A DNA stretch of 4,550 nt from a virus (taxonomy: Duplodnaviria > Heunggongvirae > Uroviricota > Caudoviricetes), in the IMG/VR virus record IMGVR_UViG_2547132270_000007. One strand, 5' to 3'. Shown here one piece after another: positions 1-4,550 of the stretch (position 1 is the stretch's first letter; the number at the start of each line of letters is the position of its first letter). The translations under genes were made by a program, and so were the position numbers. A model generated the notes under the pieces. That model ran no database searches, was not told where the DNA came from, and saw nothing but the letters and a program-made list of their open reading frames with translations.

Positions 1-265
1 GCATCACAAAATTCACTTTAAAAAGGGCGGACATCAGCCGAACTTCAAGAAAAAAACTGATGCCGCCAGGACTACACACAGCAATGTCGTTATTCACAAC
101 CGGATGCGCACTCCCACCATTTAAATTTAACAGACAAGACCGACTCTTTATGGATATCGGAAATGCGCCTTCGTGTTGTGCCCGGTTTTATTTCACCACC
201 TCCGGGCTTTGGTGGCCTCGGCTATACCCCTACAGCGAGAATATTGAATTAATCCAAATAATGGA

Positions 266-418
266 TTAGCAAGTATTTCTGGCAAGCCAGCGACGTGCGC
301 CCGTTTCAGTTTTGAATGTCTTGCTTTTTGTATAAGTCATGGCGGTGAACGTTCCATCCTGGCTGGGGAACACGCCACACACCAGGGATTCGTTGTTGCC
401 GAGGTCGATTTTTTGCAT
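266..418 (-). CDS. Small prophage protein, 50 aa (YdaF-like by size and position)
   Basis: Hand translation of the minus strand gives MQKIDLGNNESLVCGVFPSQDGTFTAMTYTKSKTFKTETGARRWLARNTC, stop TAA (+266-268). SD GAGGTG (+425-430) sits 6 nt before the ATG (+416-418) and overlaps the stop of the upstream 44-aa gene, suggesting translational coupling. Below the ORF-track length cut-off. Confidence 0.5.
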   Translation of the reverse strand: MQKIDLGNNESLVCGVFPSQDGTFTAMTYTKSKTFKTETGARRWLARNTC

Positions 419-428
419 TTTTCGCACC

Positions 429-563
429 TCACATTTTGTTGTTGCGGATAGAGGCTTCTGCCTGCCAGAGATCCCAGTCGTTGCTGCGTAGAGCCTGCAC
501 AGCCTGGTTGTAAGTGATACCGCAACAATCCATCAAATACTGAACTACTTCGTAATGCACCAT
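429..563 (-). CDS. Small prophage protein, 44 aa (YdaG-like by size and position)
   Basis: Hand translation of the minus strand gives MVHYEVVQYLMDCCGITYNQAVQALRSNDWDLWQAEASIRNNKM, stop TGA (+429-431). SD-like GGGGAGAG lies about 7 nt upstream of the ATG (+561-563). Sits between the repressor gene and the 50-aa gene, same strand. Confidence 0.5.
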   Translation of the reverse strand: MVHYEVVQYLMDCCGITYNQAVQALRSNDWDLWQAEASIRNNKM

Positions 564-629: not shown

Positions 630-658
630 ATATTAGTTATATTCATATTGATGATCAA
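630..658 (-). promoter_or_regulatory. Candidate sigma70 promoter for the leftward small-gene pair (PL-like)
   Basis: On the minus strand: TTGATC (+653-658), 17-nt spacer, TAATAT (+630-635), about 65 nt upstream of the 44-aa gene start. Hexamers and spacing are the same as the rightward promoter candidate at 1311-1339. Confidence 0.35.
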
Positions 659-752
659 CATAAATATGCATTTTGTTGATAAAAATGTACTATCCTAATG
701 AAAATTTTAGTGTTTTTTGATAAAAAAGTAAGGTGATGGGGGCGGAGGGGAC

Positions 753-780
753 AAAAAAAACCGCCAGGGATGGCGGTTTA
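753..780 (-). terminator. Rho-independent terminator downstream of the repressor gene (hairpin is symmetric, may act on both strands)
   Basis: Stem CCGCCA (761-766), loop GGGA, stem TGGCGG (771-776), flanked by an A8 run (753-760) that is a U8 tail on the minus strand and by TTTA on the plus strand. Lies about 20 nt past the repressor stop (799-801). Confidence 0.7.
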
Positions 781-798
781 GTTACGAGGTGGTGGGAG

Positions 799-1263
799 CT
801 ATTTCTTCATGCGTTTCTGAGCTGCCAGCATATTTTCAAACGCTTCTTTGTAGAGTTCATTCTGGCCTTTAAGCCTTTCGATTAGTTTTGCTTTTTCTGA
901 TTCGGGGAGGATATCAAAAAGATCCAGTAAATCAGCTTGTTGCTTGTTAACCATCCGCCACCCTTCGCCTTCGAAACTTTCGTCATAAGTTCCAGAGGAA
1001 CGTACGTAATTCATCAGATCAGCTAAATCAGGCCTCAAGTCTTCAGGCTTAACTCTTAGCAATACTGCGAATTTTAATGCCGCATCAGTGTTAAGTGGAG
1101 CCTTTCCGTTGAGATAGTGGCTAACCGTAGATTGCGTCTCAAAGCCCATTAGCTCGGCAGCAAGCTCCTGAGTCAGTTTGAGCTCTCTTTTTTTTGCATC
1201 CCAGATTCCGCGTAGACGCTGCGTAGCTTCTGGCGATGCGATTTCTTCGCGTTTTCTTCTCAT
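799..1263 (-). CDS. racR: CI-type phage repressor without peptidase domain (RacR-like), 154 aa
   Basis: ORF-track protein has an N-terminal helix-turn-helix (LTQELAAELMGFETQSTVSHYLNG) resembling the lambda CI / P22 C2 DNA-binding domain, and a short helical C-terminus with no LexA-like S24 peptidase motifs. Divergent from the Cro-like gene. Symbol assigned from architecture and synteny, not a search. Confidence 0.85.
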   Translation of the reverse strand: MRRKREEIASPEATQRLRGIWDAKKRELKLTQELAAELMGFETQSTVSHYLNGKAPLNTDAALKFAVLLRVKPEDLRPDLADLMNYVRSSGTYDESFEGEGWRMVNKQQADLLDLFDILPESEKAKLIERLKGQNELYKEAFENMLAAQKRMKK

Positions 1264-1269
1264 ACCACC

Positions 1270-1297
1270 ATCTTATGAACACAGCTCATAATCTCAA
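1270..1297 (-). promoter_or_regulatory. Candidate PRM-like promoter for the repressor, possibly giving a leaderless mRNA
   Basis: On the minus strand: TTGAGA (+1292-1297), 16-nt spacer, TAAGAT (+1270-1275), ending 6 nt before the repressor ATG (+1261-1263). No properly spaced SD precedes that ATG (GGTGG is only 1 nt away). Confidence 0.3.
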
Positions 1298-1310
1298 ACT
1301 GATATAAGTA

Positions 1311-1339
1311 TTGATCATTTAAATTAGTATAGTTAATAT
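1311..1339 (+). promoter_or_regulatory. Candidate PR-like promoter for the rightward early operon (ydaS-ydaT and downstream)
   Basis: TTGATC (1311-1316), 17-nt spacer, TAATAT (1334-1339), about 29 nt upstream of the ydaS ATG. Embedded in AT-rich palindromic sequence (TGATCA, ATTTAAAT) that could hold operators. Confidence 0.45.
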
Positions 1340-1367: not shown

Positions 1368-1643
1368 ATGACATTAGATGAATATTTGAAAAAAAATCGT
1401 GTACGACAGTCTTGTTTGGCCGCGCTGGCTGGTTGTTCGCAATCAATGATTAGCCTCGTTGCTACTGGACGTAGTCAGTTAAGCCCTGAAAAGGTATTGC
1501 GTATCGCAGAGGCTACGAATTTCGAGGTTACACCTCATGAACTCCGGCCTGATATCTACCCGAATCCGACCGATGGTTTACCTGTTGGATGTAAGGCTAA
1601 CACACAAAATGCACAGGAGTTGATTCATGAAAATCAGGCATGA
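1368..1643 (+). CDS. ydaS: Cro-like HTH regulator, YdaS family, 91 aa
   Basis: ORF track 1341-1643. Preferred start is ATG 1368 with SD AAGGTGA (1356-1362) 5 nt upstream; the TTG at 1341 would fall inside the predicted promoter. HTH region QSCLAALAGCSQSMISLVATGRSQLS. First rightward gene after the divergent promoter; overlaps the next gene by 17 nt. Confidence 0.85.
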   Translation: MTLDEYLKKNRVRQSCLAALAGCSQSMISLVATGRSQLSPEKVLRIAEATNFEVTPHELRPDIYPNPTDGLPVGCKANTQNAQELIHENQA

Positions 1644-2049
1644 GCACATCGAATCAGTGCTGTTAGCCCTGGCCGCTGAAAAAGGGCAGGCGTGGGTTGC
1701 TAACGCAATTACTGAAGAATATCTGCGCCAGGGGGGCGGCGAATTGCCCCTGGTACCAGGCAAGGACTGGAATAATCAGCAGAATATCTATCACCGATGG
1801 TTGAAAGGTGAAACAAAAGCGCAAAGGGAAAAAATTCAGAAGCTGATCCCAGCAATTCTGGCAATCCTTCCGCGCGAGCTGCGTCACCGACTCTGCATCT
1901 TCGATACCCTGGAACGCCGTGCATTACTGGCGGCGCAGGAAGCGTTAAGTACGGCAATTGATGCGCATGATGATGCTGTCCAGGCCGTTTACCGGAAAGC
2001 GCATTTCAGCGGCGGTGGTTCGTCCGGCGATTCTGTTGTTGTTCATTAA
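1627..2049 (+). CDS. ydaT: YdaT-family protein (CII-position regulator, historically called a toxin), 140 aa
   Basis: ATG 1627 with SD AGGAG (1615-1619) 7 nt upstream. 140 aa, same length as Rac YdaT; begins MKIRHEHI and ends SGDSVVVH. Sits directly after the Cro-like gene with a 17-nt overlap. Confidence 0.88.
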   Translation: MKIRHEHIESVLLALAAEKGQAWVANAITEEYLRQGGGELPLVPGKDWNNQQNIYHRWLKGETKAQREKIQKLIPAILAILPRELRHRLCIFDTLERRALLAAQEALSTAIDAHDDAVQAVYRKAHFSGGGSSGDSVVVH

Positions 2050-2068
2050 GTGAATAGGGTAACTAACA

Positions 2069-2482
2069 ATGAAAATCAAACCGTTTATCAATGCTGGAAA
2101 TCTTACTCCCGGCGAACTACGAGACTGGATCCTGAAACTTGCAAAAAATGCAGAAATTGCGGGTTGGGGTACAGAAACTTCGGTTCGGAAGCTTCAGAGC
2201 GCAGAACTTAGCCTGCGCTCAGTTATGGACGATTTATCCCCAAGAATTAATTTTCTGGGGTCAGAGCAAATAATTCGTTCGGAAGGTCACTCCAGCGAAG
2301 TTGCGGAAGTTCTGAATACTCTGAGGATAACTTTTGCTGCCGTTCGCGATATTCAACGAACCATTCTCTCATTGATTTCTCAGCTTCAAGAAATTGATAG
2401 TCGCATTCCTGACGGGGGGCATAGAGAGCGTCTTCCAGAATGTGAAGAGCAAGGACAGGGGAAACAGATAAGGGATCAGTAA
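2069..2482 (+). CDS. Hypothetical protein, 137 aa, no family recognised (conflicts with antisense ORF 2247-2702)
   Basis: ATG 19 nt after the ydaT stop, weak SD-like AGGGT 8 nt upstream. Predicted helical protein with acidic C-terminal tail. Around 10 percent rare codons (ATA, AGG, AGA, CGA, GGG). Overlaps the minus-strand ORF by 236 bp, so at most one is likely to be real. Confidence 0.4.
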   Translation: MKIKPFINAGNLTPGELRDWILKLAKNAEIAGWGTETSVRKLQSAELSLRSVMDDLSPRINFLGSEQIIRSEGHSSEVAEVLNTLRITFAAVRDIQRTILSLISQLQEIDSRIPDGGHRERLPECEEQGQGKQIRDQ

Positions 2483-2702
2483 TACGTTTTTCACTTGCCT
2501 GGTATAGCAATCTCGCCAGCGAATCATAGCTACTGGGGCTCAGGAGAGAATCCCGTGAGTGATTTGTAAGAATCAGGTGGAAGCGGGTGAGAACTATAGC
2601 CCTGCATGTTACCAGGTTAACCATGTCGTGGTCGTGCTGGTTAATTTTGTACACAGTGCGCATGTGATTTTTAATTTTTTGGCAAACAGCCATTAAAGAC
2701 AT
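2247..2702 (-). CDS. Hypothetical protein, 151 aa, His/Cys-rich N-terminus, no family recognised; antisense to the early operon
   Basis: Near-consensus SD AAGGAGG (+2709-2715) exactly 6 nt before the ATG (+2700-2702). Perfect TATAAT on the minus strand (+2742-2747) upstream. Fewer rare codons than the overlapping + ORF. Its first 73 codons lie in a region with no plus-strand ORF. Perfect 8-bp hairpin (2197-2220) lies 27 nt past its stop. Confidence 0.5.
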   Translation of the reverse strand: MSLMAVCQKIKNHMRTVYKINQHDHDMVNLVTCRAIVLTRFHLILTNHSRDSLLSPSSYDSLARLLYQASEKRITDPLSVSPVLALHILEDALYAPRQECDYQFLEAEKSMREWFVEYRERQQKLSSEYSELPQLRWSDLPNELFALTPEN

Positions 2703-2765
2703 GTCGAACCTCCTTTGGTTCTGTTGATTGGGGAATCACAGATTATATCCGGAGGAAGGTTCGAC
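2703..2765. promoter_or_regulatory. Inverted-repeat control region between the antisense ORF and the replication initiator
   Basis: 9-bp perfect inverted repeat GTCGAACCT (2703-2711) and AGGTTCGAC (2757-2765), 45 nt apart. It brackets the minus-strand TATAAT (2742-2747); the left arm is the SD-to-start spacer of the minus ORF and the right arm adjoins a plus-strand GGAGG (2751-2755). Confidence 0.35.
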
Positions 2766-2781
2766 ACCAGATGAGGCAATT

Positions 2782-3906
2782 ATGGTTAAGGCTAAAAACA
2801 TGCCAAATCCCATGCCAAAAACTAAGGCAAACAATGAGCCTTATCGCAAGGTAAAAATAACGATATGGGATGATCCCAAATTTAGGGCGTTATCTCCTCT
2901 GCCTCCAAGTGGACAGAGTTTGTTTATTTATCTGCTGACCAGTCCATTTACCGGGATTATTCCCGGGTTGTTTAAAGCCGGGCGGGCAGCAATGGCTGAA
3001 GAGTTGGGGTGGGATATTGAAGCCTTTGACTTAGCCTTAGGCGAAGCCATGAAGCTTGGCATGGTGAAAGCAGATATCAAAGCCAGAGTTTTTTGGCTCC
3101 CGAATGCTGCGAAACACAATCCGCCAAACTCGATAAATGTCATTAAATCTTGGGCAAAGGCATTCGCTTTAATTCCTGATTGCCCTCTCAAATGGGAGGC
3201 CAGGGAATCGCTGAGAGCGGCGTCCTACGGGGTTTCTGAGGCTTTGGGGATGGCATTCGATAAGGCAATCCCTTTGCCTGAGGATAAGCCTAAGGATAAG
3301 GCTAACGCTTTGTCATGCGGTATCCAGATAACAGATAACAGATATATAAACCCCACACATAACGCGCGCGTGCGCGAGAGTGCTCTGACCAGTGAGTCGA
3401 ATGATTTGCCGTTACAGGCAGCGGAACCTGATTACCTGGAAGGCCTGAGCGAACCCATCGGGAAATTTCCGATGACCGATGGCTGGCATCCGTCGCCGGA
3501 TTTCCGACGGCGGGCTGCACTGTGGGGAGTGGCTCTGCCGGAGCCGGAATTTACACCTGCTGAACTTGCCGCCTTCCGGGACTACTGGGCAGCGGAGGGG
3601 AAAGTTTTCACGCAGGTTCAGTGGGAGCAGAAATTCGCCCGTCACGTAAATCACGTCAGGGCGCAGGTTAAACCAGTCAGCAAGGGGGTGAACCATGCAG
3701 CAGCACCAGGTGGCACCGCATCACGGGCAGTTCAGGAAATTCGGGCAGCACGTGAGCAGTGGGAACGTGAAAACGGATTTATCCGCGACGGAAACGGCGT
3801 GGAAGCTGTGGGAACTCATGGGGGAGGTTTATTCGAACCGCTGGACCCAGAAGAACGGGGCCGCACCTTCGAAGCTCTGGATTGCACAGATTGGCGCGAT
3901 GACTGA
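2782..3906 (+). CDS. Phage replication initiation protein with DnaT-like C-terminal domain, about 374 aa
   Basis: ORF track 2728-3906 begins at a TTG with no SD. Preferred start is in-frame ATG 2782 with GAGG 5 nt upstream (ATG 2800 is an alternative). N-terminal region WDDPKFRALS...LFIYLLT looks like a phage replisome-organiser DNA-binding domain; a low-complexity linker follows; then a DnaT-like motif (WHPSPDF...FRDYWAAEGKVFTQVQWEQKFARHV). Sits immediately upstream of a lambda-P-like gene. Confidence 0.85.
   Translation: MVKAKNMPNPMPKTKANNEPYRKVKITIWDDPKFRALSPLPPSGQSLFIYLLTSPFTGIIPGLFKAGRAAMAEELGWDIEAFDLALGEAMKLGMVKADIKARVFWLPNAAKHNPPNSINVIKSWAKAFALIPDCPLKWEARESLRAASYGVSEALGMAFDKAIPLPEDKPKDKANALSCGIQITDNRYINPTHNARVRESALTSESNDLPLQAAEPDYLEGLSEPIGKFPMTDGWHPSPDFRRRAALWGVALPEPEFTPAELAAFRDYWAAEGKVFTQVQWEQKFARHVNHVRAQVKPVSKGVNHAAAPGGTASRAVQEIRAAREQWERENGFIRDGNGVEAVGTHGGGLFEPLDPEERGRTFEALDCTDWRDD
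3259..3380. repeat. Origin-like repeat cluster inside the initiator gene linker (candidate ori)
   Basis: GATAAGGC (3259-3266); tandem GGATAAGCCTAA / GGATAAGGCTAA (3282-3305); tandem CAGATAA CAGATAA CAGATAT (3325-3345); AT-rich TATATAAA; then an alternating CG tract CGCGCGCGTGCGCG (3363-3376). The order (iterons, AT-rich, GC-rich) parallels lambda ori, which lies within the O gene. Confidence 0.4.
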
Positions 3907-4360
3907 GCAGCAAATCCGGCAGGTCTGCCGCCAGTGCATGGACCGTTGCAGGGCAGGTGAAACATGGCCTCCGGACCTGGCTGAGTTTGTGGCGCTGATT
4001 TCGGAGAGCGGGGCAAATCCATTTGGTCTGACGGTGGATAACGTGATGGAGGAATATCGCCGCTGGCGCAATGAGTCCTGGCGATACGACGGGAGTGATA
4101 AATACCCGTGGTCTCAGCCCGTGCTGTATCACATTTGCCTCGAGATGCGGGCAAAAGGGATTGAGCGTCAGATGACCGAAGGGGAGTTAAAACGACTTGC
4201 AGAACGGCAACTGGCGAAATGGGCAAAGCTTGTTGGTGACGGCTTCAGCGTTCCGCCCGTCCGGCGGCAACTGGTAGCACCAAAACGCCCGTCGGGGCCA
4301 ACTCCAATTGAGTTGCTGAAACAGGAATATGAACGCCGGAAAGCGGCTGGGTTTGTTTGA
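3695..4360 (+). CDS. Lambda P-family replication protein (DnaB helicase loader), up to 221 aa
   Basis: Recalled lambda P sequence aligns by eye over the C-terminal two thirds (ours [10 protein letters not shown]...YPWSQ...[11 protein letters not shown]...PPVRRQL vs lambda PSPGQFVAW...YPWKS...LTDAELRRKAA...EPVKQL). ATG 3695 has a strong SD (AAGGGGGTG, 6-nt spacing) and gives near-lambda-P length. Alternative in-frame starts are ATG 3818 and ATG 3899; the weak similarity seen upstream of residue 69 argues against 3899. Confidence 0.85.
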
Positions 4361-4395
4361 GTTGAGAAGTAATTTTTACCGGGAGGAAATTTTAA

Positions 4396-4550
4396 TGGAA
4401 ACTGTTTTTGATGCACTGAAAGCAATGGGAAAAGCCACATCCATAGAACTTGCTGCGCGACTTGATATCAGTCGTGAAGAAGTGCTGAACGAACTATGGG
4501 AACTGAAAAAGGCTGGTTTCGTTGATAAAAGCGCGTACACCTGGCGTGTG
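4396..4550 (+). CDS. Small winged-helix DNA-binding protein (PapI/FaeA-like fold suspected), 5' partial, runs off the window
   Basis: ATG 4396 with GGGAGG (4381-4386) upstream; open to the window end. Translation is [52 protein letters not shown], a pattern typical of small winged-helix regulators. Too short and truncated for the ORF track. Confidence 0.55.

Follow-up and report, generated by a model that had tools for sequence, protein, structure and literature searches.

Leftward and rightward early promoters that have matched hexamers and answer to one repressor have already been documented experimentally in two E. coli prophages, CP-933P (PaaR2/YdaS) and Qin (DicA), and the sequence of K-12 Rac shows likewise. 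In CP-933P of E. coli O157:H7, which encodes PaaR2, YdaS and YdaT, the first two of these proteins repress PL933P and PR933P, promoters with common hexamers (Jurenas et al. 2021, PMC8630535); as checked on a viral contig, both read TTGACT...TAAACT. In Qin, DicA represses dicCp (PR-like) and dicBp (PL-like) (bioRxiv 10.1101/2023.04.14.536235), with matched hexamers, TTGACT-17-TATCTT and TTGACC-18-AATCTT. In K-12 Rac, which is controlled by the RacR/YdaS/YdaT system (PMC9638921, PMC11879457), PL and PR both carry TTGACA, and RacR-type operators abut the −35 and overlap the −10 at the same relative positions.

The window, that is, the whole 4,550-bp stretch of viral DNA analysed here, is, judging by its sequence, the immunity region of a Rac-type lambdoid E. 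coli prophage. It contains two TTGATC-N17-TAATAT elements, which are very likely the leftward and rightward early promoters of this prophage (PL and PR), with the same putative 17-bp repressor-binding site over each. Our overall explanation, to which we assign a probability of roughly 0.8, is that PL and PR are twins held under one repressor by common 17-bp dyads, within a Rac-type heteroimmune cassette. This would be an ordinary lambda-style arrangement in an immunity type that has not yet been studied, and of little surprise to phage specialists; it extends the Rac/Qin/CP-933P group of E. coli switches by one immunity specificity, and supplies a concrete candidate operator, TATGAA-N5-NTAATA, and a full promoter/operator map.

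A swapped immunity cassette in a Rac-type backbone

Outside positions 600–1620, the window is 92.7–98.3% identical to K-12 Rac by blastn. The homology stops at 599 and restarts at 1621, and the immunity cassette between them (about 600–1620) is swapped relative to K-12 Rac; PL and its operators were therefore inherited as one unit with the repressor, separately from the genes that PL transcribes. The main genes and signals in and around the cassette are:

266–563, minus strand: first genes downstream of PL, a ydaG-like 44-aa gene (429–563) and a ydaF-like DUF1391 gene (266–427)
758–779, minus strand: intrinsic terminator of the repressor gene (9-bp stem with 5 GC pairs, T-run), between this gene and OL/PL
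799–1263, minus strand: 154-aa repressor with a lambda-CI-like N-terminal DNA-binding domain, a disordered linker and a C-terminal helical hairpin of the DicA/PaaR2 type
1368–1643, plus strand: Cro-like YdaS-family HTH protein, 91 aa, with an AAGGTG Shine-Dalgarno sequence 8 nt upstream
1620–1637, over the ydaT start codon: YdaT box, TTGATTCATGAAAATCAG
1627–2049, plus strand: YdaT (CII analogue), 96% identical to YdaT of K-12 Rac

The likeness to K-12 Rac lies in the prophage backbone, orthologues of which flank the cassette (the ydaG/ydaF leader, KilS and ydaT), in the YdaT box over the ydaT start codon, and in the ttcA-adjacent integration of the window's nearest genome; the intR-ttcA junction is seen in the RM11911 locus (98.8% identical). 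The differences lie in the control proteins and their sites. The repressor is unrelated to RacR (BLASTP E 4.5), the Cro-like protein is just 42% identical over 50 aa, and the control regions have no RacR operators, (T/A)TAGGC-n3-GCCTA(T/A), the single 2-mismatch match, at 3279, being at chance level. The cassette is therefore predicted to be heteroimmune to K-12 Rac. It is present nearly full-length in about 75 complete E. coli genomes, and it has relatives in Salmonella, Hafnia, Enterobacter, Serratia and other genera. Its value is in annotation and in predicting heteroimmune Rac-type prophages, which are carriers of kilR, recET and, in some strains, toxin genes.

Two outward-facing probable promoters

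The sequence-only reading had pointed to PL-like and PR-like candidates with identical hexamers, identical spacing and 10 of 17 spacer positions in common. Direct reading and a pattern search bear this out: TTGATC-N17-TAATAT occurs exactly twice in the window, both copies being directed outward from the repressor gene:

630–658, minus strand: PL-like early-left promoter, TTGATC ATCAATATGAATATAAC TAATAT (read from 658 to 630); −35 at 658–653, 17-nt spacer, −10 at 635–630
1311–1339, plus strand: PR-like early-right promoter, TTGATC ATTTAAATTAGTATAGT TAATAT; −35 at 1311–1316, 17-nt spacer, −10 at 1334–1339

The two copies agree at 22 of 29 positions overall, and when 2 mismatches are allowed the window still yields just these 2 matches (0.34 expected). 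The likeness runs past the promoter cores: 621–667 and 1302–1348 are identical at 33 of 47 positions, a value reached in 0 of 2000 intergenic shuffles and in 0 of 5000 AT-matched core shuffles (maximum 31), while the best alignment of the two regions in opposite orientation scores 27.

A generic sigma-70 scan called neither promoter because each matches the consensus at only 8 of 12 positions. Their status as promoters is based on where they lie and which way they face, on conservation in the relatives and on analogy with the primer-extension-mapped ydaS promoter of K-12 Rac, the −10 of which is TAATAT (PMC9638921), the same as that of PR in the window. Transcription from PL is predicted to start near 623 and to cover ydaG/ydaF, KilS, kilR, recET, xis and int; that from PR is predicted to start near 1346 and to cover the cro-like gene and ydaT.

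The same layout recurs in each of the 15 relatives whose repressors are homologous, the lowest repressor identity being 52%. There is always a TTGNNN-17/18-TAATAT promoter at 50–51 nt from the repressor ATG and another (TTGNNN-17-TAATAT) past the repressor stop, and the order of a repressor gene with two outward early promoters and a divergent cro-like gene by PR is kept throughout, the context being seen in locus L073. The sequence-only reading had taken identical hexamers as a sign of joint control. This holds for the −10, where the TAATAT identity is kept in 15 of 16 loci, but not for the −35: PL and PR have the same −35 in only 4 of 16 loci, so that a shared −35 is not diagnostic, and the −35 is not conserved at PL. 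That the −10 identity alone is conserved, and that PL and PR of such prophages repeatedly have twin −10 hexamers, would be because the −10 doubles as an operator half-site, which takes up five of its six bases.

A 17-bp dyad at both probable promoters and in the PRM-like promoter

It had also been held that the operator sequence cannot be defined from one genome. A 17-bp dyad emerges once relatives are used. Alignment of the two regions and a scan of relatives, the route put forward by the sequence-only reading, gave a common motif, which in the close group reads TATGAA-N5-NTAATA and at both promoters overlies the spacer and all but the last −10 base; a third copy lies within a PRM-like promoter predicted to be leaderless. 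The candidate operator consensus is TAT(G/T)A(A/G)-N5-NT(A/C)ATA (17 bp), and the putative sites in the window are:

631–647, minus strand: candidate OL1, TATGAA TATAA CTAATA, over spacer positions 6–17 and five of six PL −10 bases; 18.9 bits, the top matrix match; same position in all relatives
665–681, minus strand: distal OL site (OL2 or OL3, an assignment of moderate confidence), TATCAA CAAAA TGCATA, centre 34 bp from OL1; 12.9 bits
1274–1290, plus strand: OR3-like dyad, TATGAA CACAG CTCATA, filling the PRM-like spacer; 16.5 bits
1303–1319, plus strand: tentative OR2, TATAAG TATTG ATCATT, a weak dyad including the PR −35 hexamer; 6.8–7.2 bits only
1322–1338, plus strand: candidate OR1, AATTAG TATAG TTAATA, over spacer positions 6–17 and five of six PR −10 bases; 12.3 bits; same position in all relatives

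In 15 of 15 relatives, 17-bp dyads are centred 29–30 bp upstream (OR3-like) and 19–20 bp downstream of the first PR −35 base, and the PL dyad is centred 19–20 bp downstream of the first PL −35 base. OR has two strong sites 48–49 bp apart in every locus. At PL, 7 of 15 loci have a further dyad 15–17 bp ahead of the −35, and group B has the strongest examples (we refer to the TATGAA cassettes as group A and to the TATTCG cassettes as group B). Across 18 distinct sites from group A, the outer positions hardly vary (T15 A18 T18 G14 A16 A16 ... T18 A15 A18 T18 A18), while position 12 and the centre do. For OR1 and OL1, the centres vary only in part. The variable half-site shifts with the recognition-helix residues of the repressor subgroup: TATGAA goes with QS[TS]VSH, TATTCG with QATVSQ and TATYTG with QGTVSQ.

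We scored the window with a matrix built from relatives only, which replaced a circular motif count made with a window-derived pattern. Its top four distinct sites, 631–647, 1274–1290, 665–681 and 1322–1338, all fall within the two control regions, with 0.245 matches of at least 10 bits expected in shuffled intergenic DNA; as the relatives are orthologous, this test is not independent of shared descent, and part of the conservation may reflect limited divergence. The proposal that one repressor acts on both promoters through related operators, in the style of lambda OL and OR, draws support from the relatives, with the same dyad in 15 of 15, and from the close experimental precedents.

The same matrix finds no convincing OR2 in the window, the tentative site being the best; at the equivalent position at PL, loci L017 and L019 have good dyads (10.3–10.9 bits). 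Several other candidates were set aside. An OR2 placed by lambda geometry (1297–1313, ending in the TTG of the −35) has 7 of 12 half-site matches by eye, below the listing threshold, and four equally spaced repeats of the CP-933P kind (16-bp spacing) do not fit the window sequence, also by eye. The PR-side counterpart of the distal OL site (1288–1304) has a single good half-site (TATCAG) and overlaps OR3. The 11-bp palindrome TTGAT-C-ATCAA (648–658), with the 17-bp near-palindrome around it, is not conserved in the 92–94% relatives L002 and L003.

The repressor and its putative promoter

The repressor matches only HTH_3 and HTH_31 in Pfam. Its structural model is all-helical over the 154 aa, ending in the C-terminal helical hairpin, and neither Pfam nor the model shows an S24 autocleavage domain. 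In both sequence and fold, the N-terminal domain is a homologue of the five-helix HTH domain formed by residues 1–92 of lambda CI (phmmer E 2.5e-7 with 3kz3 and 1.5e-6 with 1lmb; by Foldseek, TM 0.79 to the target 1lmb, rmsd 2.3 Å, 34% identity). In the alignment it retains the counterparts of lambda Gln33, Gln44 and Ser45, for which we assume the contact roles given in the 1lmb literature. The NCBIfam DicA model (NF007257) matches the C-terminal 50 residues only, at 35.8 bits, below the cut-off of 101.

Upstream of the repressor gene, the promoter scan called a further element:

1270–1297, minus strand: PRM-like promoter, TTGAGA-16-TAAGAT, 9 of 12 to consensus

Its −10 ends 6 nt ahead of the repressor ATG at 1263, and the repressor mRNA is therefore predicted to be leaderless; most of the 15 loci have a −10-like hexamer 6–7 nt ahead of the repressor ATG, and there are leaderless precedents in cI, paaR2 and racR (PMC8630535, PMC9638921).

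The window resembles CP-933P in its immunity-region layout (PL933P, PR933P, PRM933P), in identical PL and PR hexamers with related operators at each, in a repressor mRNA predicted here to be leaderless, in a short repressor without a peptidase domain, in the YdaS-family Cro and YdaT-family CII analogues, and in the repressor C-terminal module, which is homologous to that of PaaR2 (33% over 46 aa). These 46 aa are all that aligns, however: the N-terminal DNA-binding domain is unrelated in sequence. The CP-933P operators are 18-bp palindromes with the half-site GTTTAGTAA, of which we found none within 3 mismatches; CP-933P has four equally spaced OR repeats as against two strong sites here; and the window cassette lacks the paaA2-parE2 toxin-antitoxin genes downstream of the repressor. 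With Qin it shares, besides matched hexamers, a short repressor without a peptidase domain, the C-terminus of which is homologous to that of DicA (30% over 50 aa), and the predicted targets: DicA represses a cro-like gene on the divergent side and, leftward, an operon headed by a DUF1391 gene, within which a DicF-type sRNA is encoded. The N-terminal domain is not alignable with that of DicA, and the operator sequence is different.

Alternative explanations

Might the likeness of PL and PR be merely that of AT-rich sigma-70-like stretches, or the remnant of an old duplication, with no common operator function? The intergenic DNA is indeed AT-rich (GC 0.29–0.37), the hexamer pairs are at 8 of 12 to consensus, and the bare pattern with 2 mismatches allowed occurs at least twice in 9 of 200 shuffles. 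We nevertheless consider this very improbable, given that none of 5,000 AT-matched shuffles attains 33 of 47, that the dyad, its 17-bp length and its −10 offset are kept at both promoters in 15 relatives while the flanks diverge, and that PL and OL belong to the swapped cassette. It is equally hard to credit that the TTGATC hexamers are half-boxes for YdaT (box TTGATT-N6-AATCAA) and that the twinning stems from YdaT control and not from the repressor. TTGATC is one base off the half-box, K-12 Rac YdaT also footprints within the racR-ydaS intergenic region (PMC11879457), and the YdaT of the window is 96% identical to it; yet neither PL nor PR has a full box within 3 mismatches, the sole near-perfect one being at 1620–1637, the PL −35 varies in close relatives (TTGCTC, TTGTGT, TTGATA), and the palindrome at 648–658 is missing from L002 and L003.

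The dyads could mainly be sites of the 91-aa Cro-like protein, with the 154-aa protein binding elsewhere or to only some of them. The two proteins are always co-inherited, so covariation cannot separate their contributions to the dyad; the YdaS footprint in CP-933P falls on this same region, with a preference for the PRM side (PMC8630535), and the PRM-proximal dyad is among the best-scoring sites in the window. We regard this as unlikely, since the operators of both proteins overlap in lambda, Qin and CP-933P (PMC8630535; bioRxiv 10.1101/2023.04.14.536235), the repressor has a lambda-CI-like N-terminal domain and the sites match those of lambda in their 17-bp length and TAT ends, and lysogeny could not be maintained with the repressor absent from PL and PR. 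Rac-type elements are often defective, sieB is deleted in the window relative to K-12, and some prophage genes are frameshifted in the nearest complete genome, all of which would suit relics of a decaying cryptic prophage with a PL that no longer works. This strikes us as quite unlikely: the frame of promoters and operators is intact and is retained in different genera, the cassette persists nearly full-length in the E. coli genomes mentioned above, and the corresponding promoters work in the cryptic K-12 Rac, Qin and CP-933P (PMC9638921, PMC8630535, bioRxiv 10.1101/2023.04.14.536235).

A model of the switch

Under joint control of PL and PR by the repressor, a dimer of the 154-aa protein would recognise the 17-bp dyad through its lambda-CI-like helix-turn-helix domain. 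OL1 and OR1 overlie the promoter cores of PL and PR, each taking up the final 12 bases of the spacer and all of the −10 except its sixth base, and bound repressor would therefore exclude RNA polymerase from both early operons at once. Some further contribution may come from the distal OL site and perhaps from weak sites over the −35 hexamers. The OR3-like copy in the PRM spacer would provide for repressor autoregulation, and is the likely target by which the Cro-like protein, expected to use the same operators, turns off repressor synthesis. PaaR2 forms octamers, and the C-terminal helical module common to DicA and PaaR2 probably bridges repressors at OL and OR, about 690 bp apart.

The arrangement is like that of lambda in its 17-bp dyads starting with TAT, in O1 lying over the −10 and spacer of PL and PR, in a site within PRM and, as predicted, in a leaderless repressor mRNA and in PR and PRM starts about 83 bp apart. 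It differs in half-site positions 4–6 (G/T-A-A here, C-A-C in lambda), in having no clear OR2, and in an OL-OR distance of about 0.7 kb as compared to 2.3 kb. Unlike CI, the repressor has no S24 C-terminal domain and hence no RecA-stimulated autocleavage, so induction would not be by RecA-mediated cleavage. More speculatively, the cassette may be a natural hybrid switch, a possibility that we put forward tentatively and with more doubt than conviction: a lambda-CI-type head joined to a DicA/PaaR2-type oligomerisation module would act from two strong OR sites, one at PR and one at PRM, and from OL some 0.7 kb off, with repression and autoregulation achieved via higher-order oligomers or OL-OR looping instead of lambda-style cooperation of neighbouring OR1 and OR2 dimers, and with RecA-independent induction by an antirepressor or by stochastic switching. 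The CI-like head and DicA/PaaR2-like tail make the protein a neat example of modular repressor evolution. By the matrix, the PRM-proximal site outscores OR1, the opposite of the affinity order of CI in lambda.

An immunity cassette exchanged within a Rac-type prophage

An E. coli genome of 98.8% identity has the region in a prophage integrated adjoining ttcA, and the leftward genes continue with kilR, recE, recT, ralR, xisR and intR. The window carries the following features:

266-427, minus strand: ydaF-like DUF1391 gene
429-563, minus strand: ydaG-like gene (44 aa)
758-779: terminator of the repressor gene
799-1263, minus strand: HTH repressor gene (154 aa)
1297..1270, repressor strand: PRM-like promoter, TTGAGA-16-TAAGAT, called by the promoter scan
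1368-1643: YdaS-family Cro-like gene (91 aa)
1627-2049: YdaT-family CII analogue
right of the YdaT-family gene: replication genes

Nucleotide homology to K-12 Rac covers 1-240, 287-599 and 1621-2050 at 92.7-98.3%, and the same comparison found none at 600-1620. Identity to the K-12 Rac counterpart is 96% for YdaT but just 42% over 50 residues for the Cro-like protein, and by sequence comparison the repressor has no relationship to RacR. The homology gap, the conserved YdaT and the non-RacR repressor together mark this as a Rac-type prophage whose immunity cassette has been exchanged. Both predicted early promoters, PL and PR, which face outward from the repressor gene, lie inside this cassette; PL and its operators would therefore have been inherited with the repressor and not with the genes that PL transcribes. 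The right-hand edge is marked by a YdaT box, TTGATTCATGAAAATCAG (1620-1637, plus strand), which spans the ATG of ydaT at 1627 and has one mismatch to TTGATT-N6-AATCAA, the motif footprinted in K-12 Rac and CP-933P. A two-mismatch box is found at 1429-1446, within the cro-like gene.

PL and PR are twins beyond their hexamers

The sequence-only reading had reported identical hexamers and 17-nt spacing at 630-658 (minus) and 1311-1339 (plus), which direct reading and a pattern search reproduce: PL (minus strand, 658..630) is TTGATC-ATCAATATGAATATAAC-TAATAT and PR (plus strand, 1311-1339) is TTGATC-ATTTAAATTAGTATAGT-TAATAT. Alignment likewise bears out the reported 10 of 17 identical spacer positions, with 22/29 over the whole element. 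Allowing up to two mismatches, PL and PR are the sole matches to TTGATC-N17-TAATAT in the window (0.34 expected); for this bare pattern, 9 of 200 shuffles gave at least two matches. The likeness extends further, 621-667 and 1302-1348 agreeing at 33/47 positions, a value reached by none of 2000 shuffles of the whole intergenic regions and none of 5000 AT-matched cores (maximum 31), and comparison in the wrong orientation yields at most 27 matches. A generic sigma-70 scan of the window called neither promoter, as each hexamer pair matches the consensus at just 8/12 positions.

The PRM-like -10 ends 6 nt ahead of the repressor ATG at 1263, so a leaderless repressor mRNA is predicted; a -10-like hexamer precedes the repressor ATG by 6-7 nt in most of 15 relatives. 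Leaderless repressor transcripts are known for lambda cI, paaR2 and racR (PMC8630535, PMC9638921). The spacer of the PRM-like promoter is filled by a strong dyad, 1274-1290.

Predicted operators emerge from comparison of relatives

Repressor homologues (97% to 52% identity) occur in Salmonella, Hafnia, Enterobacter, E. albertii, Serratia and other genera. We examined 15 non-redundant loci with homologous repressors (L002-L013 minus L006, plus L015, L017 and L019). All 15 have a TTGNNN-17/18-TAATAT promoter beginning 50-51 nt from the repressor ATG and a second one 86-153 nt past the repressor stop. Alignment of both regions and a scan of relatives, the check proposed earlier, yield a 17-bp dyad at both promoters that ends one base short of the -10 end, with a third copy 13-14 nt from the repressor ATG. 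Measured from the first base of each -35, half-site models built locus by locus place the centres of strong OR dyads 29-30 bp upstream and 19-20 bp downstream in 15/15 loci, and that of a strong PL dyad 19-20 bp downstream; 7/15 loci have another OL dyad, whose centre lies 15-17 bp upstream of the PL -35.

While the operator had been considered beyond definition from one genome, the relatives make it definable: 18 distinct sites in the close group (recognition helix QS[TS]VSHYL[NS]G) give TATGAA-N5-NTAATA, with nearly invariant outer positions and variation at position 12 and the centre. The variable half-site tracks the repressor subgroup (helix residues 45, 46 and 49), being TATTCG for QATVSQ and TATYTG for QGTVSQ. 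A weight matrix built from the relatives alone, with the dyad centre masked, was scanned over the whole window. Its top four distinct sites are 631-647 (OL1, 18.9 bits), 1274-1290 (OR3-like, 16.5), 665-681 (distal OL, 12.9) and 1322-1338 (OR1, 12.3), with the fifth at 9.0 bits and 0.245 hits of at least 10 bits in shuffled intergenic DNA, although, the relatives being orthologous, this test is not wholly independent of shared descent. The conserved half-site pattern, the fixed geometry and the half-site shift with repressor subgroup are what is informative for the predicted operators.

That the PL/PR likeness is generic AT-rich resemblance, or the remnant of an old duplication, with no shared operator function is highly improbable: the former is contradicted by both the shuffles and the geometry conserved in relatives. 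Control by YdaT is an unlikely source of the twinning, given that the sole near-perfect YdaT box, 1620-1637, lies over the ydaT start as in K-12 (PMC11879457) and the -35 of PL is not conserved. The comparative data are compatible with either the repressor or the Cro-like protein having shaped the dyad and cannot separate the two; by precedent, both would use it. Control of PL and PR by one repressor through related operators, as originally proposed, is supported by the conserved dyads, their geometry and the subgroup-specific half-sites.

A direct repeat, TTTGTTGATAAAAATGTA / TTTTTTGATAAAAAAGTA (672-689 and 713-730, 41 bp apart), lies upstream of PL. Its first copy overlaps the distal OL dyad, and both carry a TATCAA half-site on the PL strand beside an A-tract; additional half-sites are one possible role for them, an UP-like or bending element another.

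The -10 is the shared element

The promoter table additionally took in L016. The -10 is identical between PL and PR in 15/16 loci, because five of the six TAATAT bases belong to the promoter-proximal half-site NTAATA of OL1 and OR1; the position of this half-site also accounts for 7 of the 10 shared spacer positions lying in the O1-covered part of the spacer (O1 being OL1/OR1). The two -35 hexamers agree in just 4/16, PL variants including TTGCTC, TTGTGT, TTGTAT, TTGATA and TTGACT. Thus, of the hexamer identity noted earlier, the -10 part is conserved and the -35 part is not, and it is the -10 that is meaningful as a shared element. TTGATCAT sits inside a weak dyad at PR (1303-1319, 6.8-7.2 bits), and L017 and L019 have good dyads at the equivalent PL position (10.3-10.9 bits), so a second operator may overlie the -35. 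A palindrome at 648-658 was rejected as an operator, being absent from close relatives.

A lambda CI-like repressor with a DicA/PaaR2-type C-terminus

Homology to the N-terminal domain of lambda CI spans residues 12-82 (E 2.5e-7). In the AlphaFold model (mean pLDDT 77; ~88 over residues 11-89) the N-terminal domain is helical, residues ~90-106 form a disordered linker and residues 107-153 a helical hairpin at the C-terminus; a fold search ranks complexes of lambda repressor with its operator highest (1lmb: 34% identity, rmsd 2.3 A, TM 0.79 to target). In 1lmb, operator position 2 is read by Gln44 and position 6 by Asn55. By alignment, the counterparts of Gln33, Gln44 and Ser45 and the basic N-terminal arm are retained, and that of Asn55 is Ala, a pattern that would fit operators with lambda's 17-bp length and TAT start, differing at positions 4-6. 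The C-terminal 46-50 residues are homologous to DicA (E 8e-7) and PaaR2 (E 3e-6), and a domain search found no S24 peptidase domain. PaaR2 assembles into octamers, and for CP-933P looping has been proposed (PMC8630535); the C-terminal module may, by analogy, bridge OL and OR, ~690 bp apart.

Known prophage switches

PL/PR twinning is already described in other prophages. PL933P was recognised by -35 and -10 hexamers identical to those of PR933P plus similar operators, and PaaR2 and YdaS repress both promoters (PMC8630535); the sequences we recovered read TTGACT...TAAACT at both. The K-12 Rac ydaS promoter, mapped by primer extension, is TTGACA-18-TAATAT (PMC9638921); the PL side reads TTGACA-17-TATAGT, with RacR-type dyads in matching relative positions. 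In Qin, dicCp (TTGACT-17-TATCTT) and dicBp (TTGACC-18-AATCTT) are both DicA-controlled (bioRxiv 10.1101/2023.04.14.536235). Neither RacR-type nor PaaR2-type operators were found in the window's control regions, and the repressor falls below the cut-off of the DicA family model, which argues for a distinct immunity specificity in a well-known architecture: one more member of a described class of prophage switch, and of low surprise.

Leader elements and flanking genes

Directly downstream of the predicted PL start lies a hairpin, GCAGCACGGCGCTGT (619-605, minus strand), followed by AGGTTTTAGT (terminator-like in the scan) and CCGCCACCCGGCG. This segment (565-622) is kept in L002-L004, relatives with different operators, and could serve the early-left transcript as an attenuator or nut-like element. 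L005, L007, L008 and other group-B loci (TATTCG half-site) have GTTCTGACAG and then a CCGGAAAGACGG hairpin ~40-90 nt downstream of PL; its resemblance to lambdoid boxB (GAAA-type loop) suggests N-type antitermination sites in these relatives.

At the left end of the window sits the 3' portion of KilS, a small RNA of K-12 Rac: 80..25 (minus strand) is identical to the kilS 3' end, and 1-240 shares 98% identity with the kilS region of K-12. The Rfam DicF-like score, 39.1 bits, is under the gathering score of 48. In K-12, sieB separates kilS from ydaF; the window lacks it (K-12 locus 1126-1681 corresponding to window 240-287). Between ydaT and the replication gene, ORFs 2069-2482 (plus, 137 aa; PHROG 37051, E 5.7e-93, function not known) and 2247-2702 (minus, 151 aa; no family match found) overlap on opposite strands of a segment for which K-12 Rac has no counterpart. 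GenBank PP818812.1 (Actinobacillus phage vB_Apl-pPE4 by name) matches window 1619-4550, from ydaT to the replication genes, at 96% identity over 2.9 kb; for E. coli Rac-type sequence this host label is unexpected. The listed lambda-P-like ORF (3695-4360) and the 3' end of the DnaT-domain replication gene (2782-3906) share ~210 nt, so the ORF probably starts at a downstream ATG. K-12 Rac has ydaV, a different ATP-binding loader, at this position; thus the replication module is also unlike that of K-12.
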